A stretch of 32,000 bases of DNA from a cyanobacterium endosymbiont of Epithemia turgida isolate EtSB Lake Yunoko (GTDB taxonomy: Bacteria; Cyanobacteriota; Cyanobacteriia; Cyanobacteriales; Microcystaceae), in contig NZ_AP012549.1 in the NCBI RefSeq assembly GCF_000829235.1, forward strand, positions 2,100,001 to 2,132,000, in the 5' to 3' direction. Within the stretch, counting starts at the first letter, position 1, and the number at the start of each line of letters is the position of its first letter. The translations under genes and the position numbers were made by a program. This document shows positions 1,120 through 19,672 of the stretch, piece after piece. The notes below the pieces were generated by a model. It saw only the letters and a program-made list of their open reading frames with translations. It had not been told where the DNA came from and ran no database searches.

Positions 1120-2586
1120 TTAGAACGTGACCTCCAGAATAGATAAGAGTTGATTGAGTAAATACCCCATTAAAAAGGCAAGTACAATAATAAAACTTGT
1201 CATAGCTAGAGTTATTTTGAGTCCGTGTTGTTTTAAAATTAATTGGAATTGAGTCAGACAAGGAATAAATAGAGTTAAGGTAACTGCCGCTACGATCAAT
1301 TGACGACCCATTAAAATACCTGAGCGATGAAGGTCAAACATAGCTGCAGCCCCATAGTCTCGACGAAAAAATCCGTAAAGAAAAATGCTGGAGGTTGAGG
1401 GAGGAAGTCCTAACCAAATCATAATTGGTTCTAACTCCTTGAGTAATATTTCAAAGAGTCCAGACAGTTTTCCTAGCCAAATTAATATTGATACTAAAAT
1501 AGATATGTGAATAATTTCCTTTAAATACCATAGAGTTCTTCCATAAGTTTTGCTTAAAATAGACTGAACCCTAGGCATCCTTAATGGGGGAATTTCTAGA
1601 TAAAAACAGGCACTATCGCCAGGTAGTATCTTGGCAGTTAATAACCCTACAATAACAAAGATAAAACTCATCGTTCCCACCCAAATAGTTAGAGCAGCAG
1701 GACTTTGAGACAGTAATCCCAAAATAACTCCTAATTGAGGCGAACAGGGAACAACTAAGGCTAATAATAGGGTAGCAATCACCCTTTCCCGTTTACTTTC
1801 TAGGGTACGGGTAACCAGAGTAGCCATTGTTCCACATCCTAATCCTAAAACTAGGGGAGTAATAGAACGTCCTGATAAACCTAAAGCTTTTAACAAGCGA
1901 TCAGCTAATAGAGAAAGTCGAGGTAAGTAGCCACTATCTTCCAGTAGAGAAAACATCAAAAAGAAAGTACTGACAATAGGGAAAATAATAGCGATAACAT
2001 ATCTTAATCCTAATGTAATAATACCATGTTCATTAGCAATCAAATTTTGCAAAATTGTCCAGGGTAAAAGAGTAGCAGTTATCTGATTAACCAGAGGGTT
2101 AATAGTTTTGGCAAAAAAAACTTCGAGATTACTTACCAATACTCCTACGCCAAAGTTACCAATAAATTGATATATTCCAAAATAAAAAATGATGATTGCT
2201 AAGGGAAAGCCCGTAATGGGATTCACAGTCAGCTGATGAAAAAATTCCTCACTTTCCTGGGATTTTTTCTTTATATTAACCACGGATGATTCTGCTATTT
2301 TCCTAGATAATTGATGGCGACTTTTTGCAACTACCAACACCAGAGGATCACTAAACTGAGATCTAACATAATCAATAACAGTTTTAATTTCTGAAAAACG
2401 GGGCTCTAGTTTTTTGGCTTTTTCCCAAAAAACGGGATCTCCTTGAATAAGTAATAGGGCTAAACTGCGCTTCGCAATTGGATATTTACACGAACTAGAA
2501 TACTTTTGATGACCTTGTGTCAGCAAGGATTCAATTCTTGTCAGCCCTTCTTCAATAGCTGTAGGATAGCGCAGGAGTGGTGACAT
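1120..2586 (-). CDS. feoB: Ferrous iron transporter FeoB, membrane (C-terminal) portion; separated from the G-domain by a frame change
   Basis: 488-aa polytopic ORF containing the FeoB core region GLGCGTMATLVTRTLESKRERVIATLLLALVVPCSPQLGV. It begins ...RYPTAIEEGLTRIE, which is what normally follows the FeoB G-domain. It overlaps the upstream fragment by 35 nt in a different frame. Confidence 0.8.
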   Translation of the reverse strand: MSPLLRYPTAIEEGLTRIESLLTQGHQKYSSSCKYPIAKRSLALLLIQGDPVFWEKAKKLEPRFSEIKTVIDYVRSQFSDPLVLVVAKSRHQLSRKIAESSVVNIKKKSQESEEFFHQLTVNPITGFPLAIIIFYFGIYQFIGNFGVGVLVSNLEVFFAKTINPLVNQITATLLPWTILQNLIANEHGIITLGLRYVIAIIFPIVSTFFLMFSLLEDSGYLPRLSLLADRLLKALGLSGRSITPLVLGLGCGTMATLVTRTLESKRERVIATLLLALVVPCSPQLGVILGLLSQSPAALTIWVGTMSFIFVIVGLLTAKILPGDSACFYLEIPPLRMPRVQSILSKTYGRTLWYLKEIIHISILVSILIWLGKLSGLFEILLKELEPIMIWLGLPPSTSSIFLYGFFRRDYGAAAMFDLHRSGILMGRQLIVAAVTLTLFIPCLTQFQLILKQHGLKITLAMTSFIIVLAFLMGYLLNQLLSILEVTF

Positions 2587-3184
2587 AATTACCGACCTTG
2601 GCTTTTAACGTTTCAATGCCTCTTTTTTGGTAGGCTGATAGGGTGACAACGGGGATACCGAGAGAGGCTTCTAATTGTTTTTCATTGACCCAAATTCCTA
2701 ATTTTTCAGCTTCATCAAGCATATTAACTGCTAATAAAACCGGGAGTTGAATTTCCATGAGTTGAAATGTCAAGGCTAACATTCGACTGAGATGTTTAGC
2801 ATCAATAACATGAATAACTAAATCAATCGATTCTGTTAATAGAAAATCTCGAGAACACTGTTCTTCTTCTGTCATGGGAATCAAAGAATACATCCCGGGA
2901 GTATCAATGATAGACACTGTTTGTCCAGCAATAACTGCCTGCCCTTTAAAAATTTCAACGGTTGTCCCAGGATAGTTGGAAACAGTTGTGTAACTATCTG
3001 TCAACAGGTTAAATAGAAGACTCTTTCCCACATTAGGAGAACCGACTAAAGCAATAGTAGCTCGAGTAGGGATTAAAGGGTTAGAGTATTTCTTGAACTG
3101 ATTTATTGTCCAAAAACGATCCCAGATAGCTGTCAATTTACCTGGGGATATTTGGCAAAAATCCCGACAGTGATTGCACGCCAT
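2552..3184 (-). CDS. feoB: Ferrous iron transporter FeoB, N-terminal GTPase domain fragment
   Basis: G1 GSPNVGKS, G2 GTTVE, G3 DTPG and G4 NMLD motifs are present in order. ATG start at 3184. It ends after ...GIETLKAKVGNYVTTPALSYSY, where the membrane domain continues in another frame. Confidence 0.8.
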   Translation of the reverse strand: MACNHCRDFCQISPGKLTAIWDRFWTINQFKKYSNPLIPTRATIALVGSPNVGKSLLFNLLTDSYTTVSNYPGTTVEIFKGQAVIAGQTVSIIDTPGMYSLIPMTEEEQCSRDFLLTESIDLVIHVIDAKHLSRMLALTFQLMEIQLPVLLAVNMLDEAEKLGIWVNEKQLEASLGIPVVTLSAYQKRGIETLKAKVGNYVTTPALSYSY

Positions 3185-4994: not shown

Positions 4995-5354
4995 TTAGCT
5001 ACAAGGGGTGGTTTTACTACTACAATCTCTTGATGAGAAAGACTTGCCACACCCACAGGTATCTCCAGCATTAGGATTAGTAAAAGTAAATCCGCTTTGG
5101 GTTAAACTGTCTACAAAATCGATTACCACCCCTTTGAGAAGAGGGAAACTTTGGGAATCAATATAAATAGGAACATTCTCCTGCTCAAAAAACATATCTT
5201 GAGCGTCTGGCTGTTTCACTAAATTGAGGGTGTATTCATAACCACCACAGCCGCCATTTTTAATCCCAACACGAATCCCGGTTACTTTAGCTCCTTTCCC
5301 TTCTAAGAAGGTACGAAGTCTAAAAGCTGCTTTTTCAGTTAAACTAACTGTCAT
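4995..5354 (-). CDS. hesB: HesB/IscA-family Fe-S cluster assembly protein
   Basis: IscA-type motifs GGCGGYEY and the C-terminal CGCGKSF are present. It lies between hesA and fdxH. Confidence 0.9.
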   Translation of the reverse strand: MTVSLTEKAAFRLRTFLEGKGAKVTGIRVGIKNGGCGGYEYTLNLVKQPDAQDMFFEQENVPIYIDSQSFPLLKGVVIDFVDSLTQSGFTFTNPNAGDTCGCGKSFSSRDCSSKTTPCS

Positions 5355-14635: not shown

Positions 14636-15544
<909 letters not shown>

Positions 15545-15565
15545 CTAGGGAAGTTTTGACCGTTT

Positions 15566-15638
15566 CTGACGTAAAAATGGGTCGCCAACTGATCGTTAGC
15601 TGCGGGATGTCCCATCGAACCCTTAATCTTTACGTCAG
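15566..15638 (-). promoter_or_regulatory. Stem-loop in the nifH leader, 58-130 nt upstream of the nifH ATG
   Basis: A perfect 10-bp inverted repeat CTGACGTAAA (15566-15575) / TTTACGTCAG (15629-15638) has an inner ATGGG/CCCAT helix (15577-15581 / 15611-15615). Confidence 0.55.
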
Positions 15639-15954
15639 GGCTGGGATTTCTTCCACTATAGAAGCTAACTCTTGGTTAAGAAAAGCTTCCCCCGAGAAGA
15701 GCAAAAGCTATAAAACTTCACTCACGGGGTGACGTTGTAGAGATTTAAACCAAACCTAACCATGGCTGTGTCATGAGCAAGTAGATAAACAACACTCGTT
15801 CGTGACCATCCTTGATGGTCGGCTATTTCTAAACGTCCGGCGCGAGAAGCGATGCCTATGGTGGAGATCGCTCTCGACCTTTTTGAATTAATGACATGGG
15901 CTTTTTTTGGGGTAGTTGATAATAAATAAATCGTTGATAGTTTATTCTATGTTG

Positions 15955-16386
15955 TTATACAGAAACGACGACTAATTCTGGAAAGATATGATATTTGGAC
16001 TCAATTGTATTTTTGGGGTGGCTGCACTGCTCGCACGAGAACCACAGGCTTCTTTGAGAGTGACTTTGACTAACTCTAGATCAAATAAGTCTATAAATTA
16101 AGTCTACATCCCCTCCATCTTGTGCTAAGGCTGGCTTAACTTCTTCTTCAAGAGTCTTTTTAATAAAGGTGATTTTTTGCAGATTTGTTAAAAATGTGGT
16201 ATGGGCAATTTTGGACTTAGATATTGCAACTTCTATTGCTTCTACTGCTATGGTTTGTTCTTGCACAATTTCAGCTTCAGCTAAAATGTCATCTGTAATA
16301 GCCTCCCCCGACTTTTTCTTCGTAATCGTTCCCTGATTTCGAGGATTGTGAAAGAATTCCATGACTTTGTCCGTGTAGTCCAACAT
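15955..16386 (-). pseudogene. nifU: nifU remnant: internal deletion, frameshifts and loss of the CxxC motif
   Basis: The N-terminus MLDYTDKVMEFFHNPRNQG is joined directly to the C-terminal Nfu region LTNLQKITFIKKTLEEEVKPALAQDGGDVDL. A stop occurs at 16081. Homology continues in other frames (DLFDLELVKVTLKEACGSRASSAA, then ELVVVSV* ending at 15955). About 430 bp remain, against roughly 900 bp expected. Confidence 0.85.
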
Positions 16387-16447
16387 TGTCTTTTCCTGCG
16401 TAAATCGTTGATATTTGTTGATAATAATTTTGTTTAGTGAATATCCA

Positions 16448-17647
16448 CTACTTAGTTAAGGCTGTCTGTTTTCGTTCGACAAGCAAACTGGCATCATCGC
16501 TAGTCCACGAAGACAAGGCACGGAGGCGATCAATATTTTCTGGCAGTACTTTAAGTACCTTCTGTATTTGATCATGAGTGGTAAAACGAGACAAACTAAA
16601 GCGAATGGAGCCGTGAAGCAACGTATGGGGAACTCCCATTGCTCGCAATACATGAGACGGTTCTAAGGACCCGGAGGTACAAGCAGAACCAGAGGAGGCA
16701 TAAATTCCATGTTGATTTAGGGATAAGAGAATAGCTTCTCCTTCAACGAATTTAAAGCCAATATTTGAGGTGTTGGGAAGCCTTTGCACTGCATGACCAT
16801 TAAGCACGGTATCAGGAATGGTTGTCAGTATAGTTTGTTCTAAATAATCTCGTAATTCTTTCTCCCCGCTTCCCATAAGATGAGACTCAGCTAACTCAGC
16901 CGCTTTTCCTAGGGCGATAATACCAGGAACATTTTCAGTTCCTCCACGACGGCCTCTTTCCTGCTGCCCACCAATCAGTAAAGGGTGAAATCTTGTGCCA
17001 CGACGCACATATAGAGCACCAATTCCTTTGGGAGCATGAATTTTATGACCAGAAAGAGTCAACATATCAATGCTGCTTTTACACATATTGAGGGGAATTT
17101 TTCCTACTGCCTGCACCGCATCAACATGAAATATTGCTCCGTATTTTTTGGACAGTTGCCCAATGTGTTCTATGGGAAAAATAACGCCAGTTTCATTATT
17201 AGCATACATCAGTGTGACTAACGCTGTGTTTTTGGTTAGAGATGCCTCAAACTCTGAAATATCTAACTGCCCTTGATTATCAACCGATAGATAAGTAACA
17301 GTATAGTCTTTACGTTCCAAACTTTTGCAAAGATTAAGAACTGCCGGATGTTCAACCCTACTAGTAATAATGTGACGTTTGTTGGGTTGAGCGAGAAGAG
17401 CAGCATGAATGGCGGCATTATCTCCTTCAGTCCCACAACTAGTAAAAACGATCTCAGAAGGTTCCGCACCTAACAAAGAAGCAACTTGTTCTCTACCGGT
17501 TTTAACTGCAAGCCCTACCTGCCTACCAAAGGTGTGCATACTAGAGGGGTTACCATAATAGAGGGTTAAATAGGGCAGCATAGCTGCAAGAACTTCTTCG
17601 TCAACTTGTGTAGTAGCGTTATTGTCAAGATATACACAGTCTTTCAT
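16448..17647 (-). CDS. nifS: Cysteine desulfurase NifS
   Basis: 399 aa, class V aminotransferase. It has the PLP-lysine context SGHKIHAPKG and the active-site loop SSGSACTSG. It lies between the fdxN and nifU positions. Confidence 0.95.
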   Translation of the reverse strand: MKDCVYLDNNATTQVDEEVLAAMLPYLTLYYGNPSSMHTFGRQVGLAVKTGREQVASLLGAEPSEIVFTSCGTEGDNAAIHAALLAQPNKRHIITSRVEHPAVLNLCKSLERKDYTVTYLSVDNQGQLDISEFEASLTKNTALVTLMYANNETGVIFPIEHIGQLSKKYGAIFHVDAVQAVGKIPLNMCKSSIDMLTLSGHKIHAPKGIGALYVRRGTRFHPLLIGGQQERGRRGGTENVPGIIALGKAAELAESHLMGSGEKELRDYLEQTILTTIPDTVLNGHAVQRLPNTSNIGFKFVEGEAILLSLNQHGIYASSGSACTSGSLEPSHVLRAMGVPHTLLHGSIRFSLSRFTTHDQIQKVLKVLPENIDRLRALSSWTSDDASLLVERKQTALTK

Positions 17648-17777
17648 CGCAAGGTACCCATAAATAAATTCTGTGTTCGAGCAACTAGCAGTTAAGTCGA
17701 GGACAGGAAGCAGACGTTAAAATCTCAGTTAAATCTTAATTACGCCTTGGAATAAAGAGTTTGAATAGACATTGACC

Positions 17778-18217
17778 TTATTTGGTCTTGAGCCATTTTA
17801 ATGAAGTTTGGTAACGACTGAAGCAATCCTTCCAGTAATTCAGCATAAGCATACTAAAAGTTTCTATAGTAGCCTCGATAATAGCCACAAGTGGTAGAGT
17901 CAATGAGCAAGATACTTTTGTCGGAGAAGATAGCATTAGTTGGACATCTAACACTATAACGATGACAGATAACACATCCAGATATTTATGTTATAGCATA
18001 ACTCATGACACTACCCTTGTTTTATTTAGTTTTACCGGGTGTTGCCTAAGTTGGGTAAACAGCTATAATCTCGTGAAAATCCCGCACAGGGGGGAATATT
18101 GTAGTCATCGACGCAACTATAGCAGGTATTTGGAGCGTCATTATCGAATTGATGACCTGAAGTTACCGAGAAAACGCTAGAAGCTTCCACAGGAGTGCTC
18201 TTCATAGAATTCATCAT
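17778..18217 (-). pseudogene. fdxN: fdxN (2x[4Fe-4S] ferredoxin) remnant in two frames
   Basis: It occupies the nifB-nifS slot where fdxN sits in cyanobacteria. Fragment 18032..18217 retains NTCYSCVDDYNIPPCAGFSRDYSC but has lost the first CxxCxxC...CP cluster motif (it reads SSVFSVTSG) and two later Cys. Fragment 17778..17975, in another frame, ends NYWKDCFSRYQTSLKWL, like the FdxN tail. Confidence 0.7.
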
Positions 18218-18220
18218 TTA

Positions 18221-19672
18221 CTACAACACTCCCATTAATTCTTTAGACTTCATAAACTGCTCATAGAAATCTAGGGCTACTTTGTCGATAACATCGTAAG
18301 CTTCAAAAGGTTCTAACCCAGCCTTACGCAACTCTTTTTGAGGACAAAGACCAATCTTGGAAGCGAGCACTCCTTTGCAATCAGCAATAGCTTTGATGAT
18401 ATGTTCAAGAGTCGCTTCCTCTCCGTATCCAGCTTGACAATAATGGTCTACTTTGCGATGGGCTACGAATTTAACATCTGCACCATCAACTTCAAATATC
18501 TGAAATTCTTTAGCGTGACCAAAGTGTTGGTTTACTAATCGATTCCCTTTTGTTGCTACTGCTACAAGAATCTTAGGACCTTTTTTGAGTGTTTTAGCAG
18601 CTTTAGAGGCTTTTACTTCGGCGGTGAATTTTTCGATACCTTCGTGGACTTTCTGGCGGGCAGCTAAATCATATTCAGGCTTCATCTCGAGAAATTTATC
18701 TTTGGTGAATTCCTGAGAACGGTCTTCCCCTAAGAGTCCTACTGCATCTGCCCGACATTGACGACAGTGACGCATCATTCTCATGTTGCCAGAACAACTA
18801 TCTTGAACTGCTTTAAGTTCTTTGGGACTAGGACCGCGTTGTCCGGTCAAACCAAAGTGGGTACCATGTTCAGGCGCACTTATTAAAGGCATAATATTAT
18901 GAATAAATGCACCTTTAGAACGAATAACTTTGTTAACTTCTGCCAGGTGTTGGTCGTTAACTCCAGGAATCATAACCGAGTTAACTTTGCAAAGGATGTC
19001 TGCCTCTCTAAGGGCCTCTAGAGCCTCCATCTGTTTCTCGTGGAGAATTCTGACTCCTTCAATTCCCTTATAACGTTTGCGATTGTAACGCACCCAAGGA
19101 TAGATTTTTTCTCCAATCTCGGGATCAATCATATTAATAGTTAGGGTAACATGATCGATTTTCAATTCTTTGATTTTATCAATATACTCTGTCAACATCA
19201 AGCCGTTGCTTGACAAACATAATTTAATATCGGGGGCTTGCTCAGCTACTAGTTCAAAGGTACGGAAAGTATGTTTAGGATTCGCCAAGGGGTCGCCGGG
19301 ACCTGCAATACCCAGTACTGTCATTTGAGGAATCTTTCCAGCAATGACTAGAGCCTTGTGGGCGGCTTCTTCGGGGATTAGAACTTCACTAACTACTCCC
19401 GGACGGCTTTCGTTGGCGCAATCGTACTTGCGATTACAATAGTTACATTGAATGTTGCAAGCAGGGGCAACTGCCACGTGTAATCTTGCATAGTGATGGT
19501 GTGCGTCCTCACTATAGCAAGGGTGTTTAGCAATCCGTTCCTGAATGTTTTTAGGAACAACCTGAGAAGTAGAGGAGTCACAGCCACAAGGCCCAGAAGC
19601 TCTTGTGGTAGACAGGGTTGCTGTTTTGGTTGCCGATGAGTCAGAGTTAGTTAAACCAGTTGATTGTAACAT
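18221..19672 (-). CDS. nifB: FeMo-cofactor biosynthesis radical-SAM protein NifB (with C-terminal NifX-like domain)
   Basis: The radical-SAM motif [14 protein letters not shown] is present. 483 aa, ATG at 19672, first gene of the minus-strand unit. Confidence 0.97.

Follow-up and report, generated by a model that had tools for sequence, protein, structure and literature searches.

A truncated and frameshifted nifU relic between nifS and nifH in the cyanobacterial endosymbiont of Epithemia turgida

The remnant of nifU in the nif cluster of the Epithemia turgida endosymbiont is very probably a dead gene, which would have arisen through an ancestral deletion of 154 codons followed by near-neutral drift and, later, by frame breaks in E. 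turgida. The window analyzed here is a stretch of 32,000 nt from a chromosome of 2,794,318 bp, with its nif genes on the minus strand and with NifS and NifD identical to BAP18213.1 and BAP18211.1, respectively, of this endosymbiont. A first-pass annotation had described nifU as a decayed pseudogene beside an intact nifS, and this description is upheld by the deletion, the loss of the CxxC motif, the frameshifts, the whole-protein score, and the substitution pattern presented below. It had also called the operon otherwise intact, which is incorrect because fdxN is a pseudogene as well. The relevant parts of the cluster are as follows:

18221-19672, minus strand: nifB
17680..18006, minus strand: fdxN pseudogene, with in-frame stops, a frame change, and the Cys ligands lost
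16448..17647, minus strand: nifS, intact, 399 aa
15955..16386, minus strand: nifU relic, 432 nt (144 codons), with a conceptual product of 143 aa once one A is removed and one A is added
15509..15954, minus strand: conserved nifU-nifH intergenic region, which evolves more slowly than the relic
14636-15508, minus strand: nifH
beyond nifH, minus strand: nifD, nifK, nifE, nifN, nifX, DUF269, nifW, hesA, hesB, fdxH, and feoB
4995..5354, minus strand: hesB of the same nif cluster, intact, an IscA/A-type Fe-S carrier

That nifU is truncated in the diazoplast clade is already known from two sources. The R. gibba spheroid body was described as carrying a truncated nifU together with an fdxN pseudogene, and its short nifU ORF was said to still encode the [2Fe-2S] domain (Kneip et al., 2008, PMC2246100). 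According to a recent preprint, the nifU that lies between nifS and nifH in the diazoplasts of E. turgida, E. adnata, and R. gibba is "truncated, likely inactive", and every diazoplast genome has two SUF clusters, which are proposed to compensate (bioRxiv 10.64898/2026.04.23.720389). Relative to the available text of these sources, the present analysis contributes the precise junction of the deletion, a pair of E. turgida-specific frameshifts, and selection statistics, as well as the distribution of the truncation among lineages, the finding that nifU is intact in the endosymbionts of E. clementina and E. pelagica, and a correction to a RefSeq name.

The relic itself is composed of the following parts:

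16081-16386, minus strand: 101-aa ORF, as translated, ending in a premature TGA stop at 16081..16083
16294..16386, minus strand: retained IscU-like N-terminus, 31 codons (MLDYTDKVMEFFHNPRNQGTITKKKSGEAIT; MLDY...GEAIT), including none of the three scaffold Cys
16293..16294, minus strand: junction of the in-frame 154-codon deletion, placed by alignment to the E. clementina endosymbiont NifU
16270..16281, minus strand: 6-nt tandem duplication, GCTGAA twice (AEAE), otherwise present only in the E. adnata endosymbiont
16082..16106, minus strand: 12-nt tandem duplication (TAGACTTAATTTA / TAGACTTATTTG), copies at 16094-16106 and 16082-16093
16098/16099, minus strand: one extra A within the first copy of the 12-nt duplication, specific to E. 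turgida, which shifts the frame
16035..16046, minus strand: former Nfu CxxC motif, TGT GGT TCT CGT (C-G-S-R), with CGT at 16035-16037
16010..16014, minus strand: A5 run, shortened by one A (-1) relative to the A6 of E. adnata, which restores the original frame
15955..15957, minus strand: ancestral nifU stop codon, TAA

The 432 nt agree with an earlier estimate that about 430 bp of nifU are left, and translation and Pfam bear out the account of a 101-aa ORF that opens with the NifU N-terminus and ends in the beginning of the Nfu domain. A tblastn search with a full-length NifU, a check proposed in the first-pass annotation, was carried out with the 296-aa protein of the E. clementina endosymbiont; residues 1-31 and 186-296 map to 16386-15958, with 54% identity in the C-terminal part. 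The deletion comprises residues 32-185, is in frame, and took both the IscU-like domain with its three Cys and the Fer2_BFD [2Fe-2S] domain with its four, and hence all seven ligands. Loss of these two domains had been recognized correctly, but its size had been put at about 170 aa instead of 154, and the surviving N-terminus at about 21 residues instead of 31.

Beyond the stop of the ORF, NifU homology continues in another frame (FIDLFDLELVKVTLKEACGSRASSAATPK), where the CxxC motif reads C-G-S-R, both as originally described. The final ~20 codons (NTIESKYHIFPELVVVSV and the stop) share the frame of the start codon, so that two compensating indels (+1 and -1), and not three frames, account for the reading frame of the 432 nt. 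The relic does end at 15955, as had been proposed, but its last residues do not lie in a third frame. Both single-A changes were mapped against the E. adnata copy, in which the 12-nt duplication is in frame. The near-duplicated segment to which the first frame break had been attributed is therefore real but is not its cause, since it is the extra A that breaks the frame. Two 2-codon deletions are also found in the Nfu domain. Both E. turgida indels are real, as an independent Logan assembly (SRR29904087) agrees with the window in every one of 6306 bp, both indels included, and a second run (SRR29904083) has the same 101-aa ORF. Pattern scans of a metagenome contig collection, one for the indel site and one for the deletion junction, gave no match, and samples of the relevant kind are evidently absent from it.

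Family models place the remnant far below NifU proper. Pfam NifU_N (PF01592) covers only positions 2-26 of 127 on the 101-aa ORF, and PF01106 covers positions 1-23 of 67 with 24.1 bits, below the cutoff of 27. On the repaired relic the PF01106 match extends to positions 1-48 of 67, with the motif still CGSR. Against TIGR02000, the model for NifU proper with a curated cutoff of 273.3 bits, the ORF as found scores 51.5 bits, the repaired 143-aa product 65.6, a CGSC-bearing short form 76.2, and the intact E. clementina copy 410.3. Relative to the canonical three-domain NifU (TIGR02000; Azotobacter vinelandii, Anabaena), the relic is orthologous by position and sequence, yet it is frameshifted and lacks the IscU-like domain, the Fer2_BFD domain, and the CxxC motif; of the features that define NifU proper, it keeps the position between nifS and nifH and lacks the whole-protein score, the IscU-like Cys, Fer2_BFD, and the Nfu CxxC. 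The continuous PF01106 domain with CxxC that characterizes a Nfu-type carrier is likewise missing. Two features of a pseudogene are present, namely a frame disruption found in independent sequence data and relaxed selection together with an excess of indels. The 101-aa ORF contains no cysteine and would thus be unable to bind an Fe-S cluster. Its RefSeq name (WP_232509875.1, "iron-sulfur cluster assembly scaffold protein") is misleading for a protein of this kind.

Sister loci were gathered by exact-protein look-ups. A NifS scan of genome contigs had returned, among the matches listed, free-living cyanobacteria and other diazotrophs at no more than 76% identity, and no spheroid bodies. The best protein matches to the relic are short NifU ORFs from related diatom endosymbionts. 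Such short forms (110-143 aa) occur in six lineages, including metagenome lineages, and only two keep the CxxC motif as CGSC:

E. adnata endosymbiont (P0001): 143 aa, CGSR, 93% identity to the window ORF
two JGI variants (P0008, P0009): 143 aa, CGSR and CSSR, frame uninterrupted
two lineages (P0002, P0003; loci L082, L088): 137 aa, CGSC kept, frame uninterrupted
one lineage (P0004; loci L089/L090): 132 aa, SGSC, with its own -1 frameshift ~5 nt from that of E. turgida
R. gibba (P0005) and R. inflata (P0006) endosymbionts: 110 aa, CSSF, residues 5-31 missing as well

The change from Cys to Arg in the motif is common to E. turgida, E. adnata, and P0008. The R. gibba spheroid body matches E. turgida in locus, clade, loss of the scaffold, and the accompanying fdxN pseudogene, whereas the R. 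gibba and R. inflata copies differ in the further loss at the N-terminus. In contrast to the statement of a remaining [2Fe-2S] domain in R. gibba (Kneip et al., 2008), every short form in the alignment obtained here lacks the four central Cys. At the same position, a three-domain NifU of 295-296 aa is encoded in the E. clementina and E. pelagica endosymbionts, so that the suggested comparison of sister loci supports the pseudogene assignment with both short and full-length copies.

In a neighbour-joining tree of the stretch from nifH to nifE (4150 ungapped columns), R. inflata and the E. turgida group are sisters in 292/300 bootstraps, with E. clementina outside, so that the truncated lineages are a clade. 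At their 3′ junctions the two types of deletion lie one codon apart, and the junction codons fit one or two origins with equal numbers of events. Given this close agreement of the 3′ junctions and the sister relationship of the lineages, a single ancestral deletion is favoured, though not proven, with the R. gibba/R. inflata line having later lost another 81 nt. Alternatively, R. gibba/R. inflata and the E. turgida group may each have undergone a deletion of their own.

Substitution patterns indicate that the relic decays at about the neutral rate. Parsimony counts give an omega of 0.67-0.77 for the relic in the truncated clade, which is not significantly below 1 (P = 0.11-0.20), while for these columns a comparison of the two intact copies, from E. 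clementina and E. pelagica, yields 0.14. In the same taxa omega is 0.25 for nifS and 0.19-0.35 for nifH, and the relic differs from nifS plus nifH taken together (Fisher test, P = 0.015). Split by segment, with small counts in each, omega is 0.44 for the N-terminus, 1.06 for the linker, and 0.72 for the Nfu domain. At least 10 indel events fall within the ~430 nt of relic, as opposed to one each in nifS and nifH. The values below 1 may reflect weak residual constraint on the short form.

The lineages that retain CGSC are the starting point of a reading in which nifU is being lost stepwise. Here the 137-aa CGSC forms (L082, L088) would be nif-linked carriers of the Nfu type working with NifS and SUF, and E. 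turgida, E. adnata, and R. gibba would already have arrived at complete loss. This is unlikely. The CGSC-keeping pair has an uninterrupted ORF and a pairwise omega of 0.33, a value that derives from just 11 substitutions. If stepwise loss were true, the lineages would present a series from full NifU through a mini-Nfu to none in organelle-like nitrogen fixers, and would help to define a minimal Fe-S maturation set for engineered nitrogen-fixing organelles. The first-pass annotation had named orthologous functional clusters in free-living relatives, with the same short form under purifying selection, as one observation that would speak against a pseudogene. An uninterrupted short form does exist in sister endosymbionts, but it shows no detectable purifying selection and does not come from free-living relatives, and therefore the pseudogene reading stands.

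The DNA downstream of the relic behaves differently. Between E. turgida and E. clementina the intergenic region at 15509-15954 has p = 0.122, compared with a dS of 0.38 for nifS and 0.22 for nifH, and is thus more conserved than synonymous sites in the flanking genes. It is probably the nifH promoter or leader. Hairpins are predicted within it, for example CTGACGTAAA...TTTACGTCAG at 15566-15638; an Rfam search over the whole window returned no family above threshold, and variation in the nifU-nifH intergenic region is too low for covariation to support a structure. Two pairs of motifs containing TATCAAC flank the relic, one in the nifS-nifU intergenic region (16401-16427) and one in the nifU-nifH intergenic region (15915-15942). 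Each pair combines a repeat of 16 nt with one of 11 nt, and their order is swapped between the pairs. These may be a cis element or may be due to chance.

It could be argued that the relic is itself functional non-coding DNA, serving as a spacer, promoter, or RNA-processing element for nifHDK in a nifB-nifS-nifH transcription unit, given that ~430 nt have been kept, and not deleted, in every truncated lineage, that the adjoining intergenic region is clearly constrained, and that the TATCAAC pairs occur on both sides. This is very unlikely, as divergence in the relic runs at about twice the rate of the adjacent region (0.058 vs 0.034 between E. turgida and the CGSC lineage at L082, and ~0.19 vs 0.113 versus R. 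inflata) and the relic tolerates many indels, among them deletions of 81 nt and 12 nt in the R. inflata copy. Under the dead-gene reading, the DNA is probably still there because deletion is slow and because it lies inside the nifB-to-nifHDK region.

The uninterrupted 137-143-aa ORFs of sister lineages, two of them with CGSC, also suggest a working single-domain Fe-S carrier of the Nfu type, comparable to cyanobacterial NfuA, with the E. turgida indels either sequencing errors or bypassed during expression. The two indels cancel out over a distance of less than 85 nt and one of them lies in a homopolymer, which fits this idea, but it is nevertheless highly improbable. The independent assembly has the same sequence, and efficient transcriptional slippage needs a run longer than A5. 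Even when repaired the motif is CGSR, with three different routes of loss elsewhere, and the Nfu domain, with its two 2-codon deletions, matches PF01106 incompletely; omega is ~0.7. The repaired relic, a linker with a Nfu-like domain, bears a superficial likeness to single-domain Nfu/NfuA (Synechocystis Ssl2667 type, PF01106). Housekeeping Nfu proteins are 76-80 aa long, keep CxxC, and are at least 90% conserved across cyanobacteria, unlike the relic with its CGSR, internal deletions, and near-neutral evolution.

The neighbouring nifS is intact, scoring 607.7 against TIGR03402 (cutoff 530.75) with the motifs of the PLP-binding Lys and the active-site Cys present, which confirms the earlier statement that the desulfurase has been kept. 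When the nif genes of the window were compared with those of the E. clementina endosymbiont (L096) and of locus L093, unique amino-acid changes across ten nif genes numbered 113 in the E. turgida lineage and 49 in the E. clementina lineage, a difference of about twofold, and NifB and NifS each show a significant excess in E. turgida. An acceleration or adaptation specific to NifS after the loss of NifU was considered and rejected, since NifS (25:10) does not differ from the remaining nif genes (88:39; Fisher P = 1.0). Next to no credence attaches to the notion that the 101-aa ORF or its 31-residue N-terminus is a new NifS-binding or regulatory peptide: this segment is the part that contacts the cysteine desulfurase in IscU-type scaffolds, has the lowest omega of the three, and retains a conserved start codon and ribosome-binding region, but that omega comes from very small counts (6.5 synonymous and 11.5 non-synonymous changes), the segment is deleted in the R. 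gibba and R. inflata lineages, and NifS shows no specific acceleration or co-evolution signal relative to other nif genes.

Several other features of the cluster deserve mention. The "fdxN" ORF of the E. clementina endosymbiont (L096, 2867-3295) is uninterrupted and has most of its Cys ligands gone, and E. pelagica fdxN keeps them. Between nifB and the fdxN relic of E. turgida lies a conserved, Cys-rich ORF of 61 aa (18032-18217, minus strand), intact beside the decaying fdxN, with counterparts of 64 aa in the E. clementina endosymbiont (68% identity) and 54 aa in E. pelagica (58%); a Pfam search with this ORF found no family. The ferrous-iron transporter gene of the cluster, feoB (1120-3184, minus strand), is split: FeoB_N (210 aa, 2552-3184) and Gate/FeoB_C (488 aa, 1120-2586) are separate ORFs that overlap and lie in different frames, which suggests a frameshift. 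In the R. inflata endosymbiont the nif cluster (L091, CP191494.1, 2667-10040) is badly degraded: nifB is reduced to its last 107 aa and nifK to residues 85-434, an insert of ~1.17 kb splits nifS at the PLP-Lys region, and nifD is frameshifted and truncated, while nifH is intact and 96.6% identical. Either nitrogen fixation has been lost in this endosymbiont or the assembly is poor.

On the reading of a dead gene, an in-frame deletion of 154 codons would have occurred in the ancestor shared by one subclade of Rhopalodiacean endosymbionts, namely those of E. turgida, E. adnata, R. gibba, and R. inflata with related metagenome lineages, fusing the 31 N-terminal codons to the linker and Nfu domain. 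The remaining ORF of ~137 codons would then have drifted near-neutrally, accumulating small duplications and deletions, with CxxC lost independently in several lineages. In E. turgida the +1 A insertion and the -1 change in the A-run would have broken the frame last, leaving the cysteine-free 101-aa ORF. The Fe-S clusters of nitrogenase would presumably be built without NifU, by NifS or SufS feeding other machinery. Candidates for this machinery are HesB, the A-type carrier of the nif cluster, and the SUF system, which all diazoplast genomes are reported to contain. A search for a housekeeping Nfu returned thousands of near-identical cyanobacterial proteins, none assignable to the E. turgida endosymbiont.

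As such, the relic is ordinary for a reductively evolving endosymbiont. Its decay indicates that a dedicated NifU scaffold would be dispensable in a nitrogen-fixing endosymbiont derived from a cyanobacterium, as earlier work on this clade has argued, and this bears on the question of which genes are needed for nitrogenase in eukaryotic compartments.
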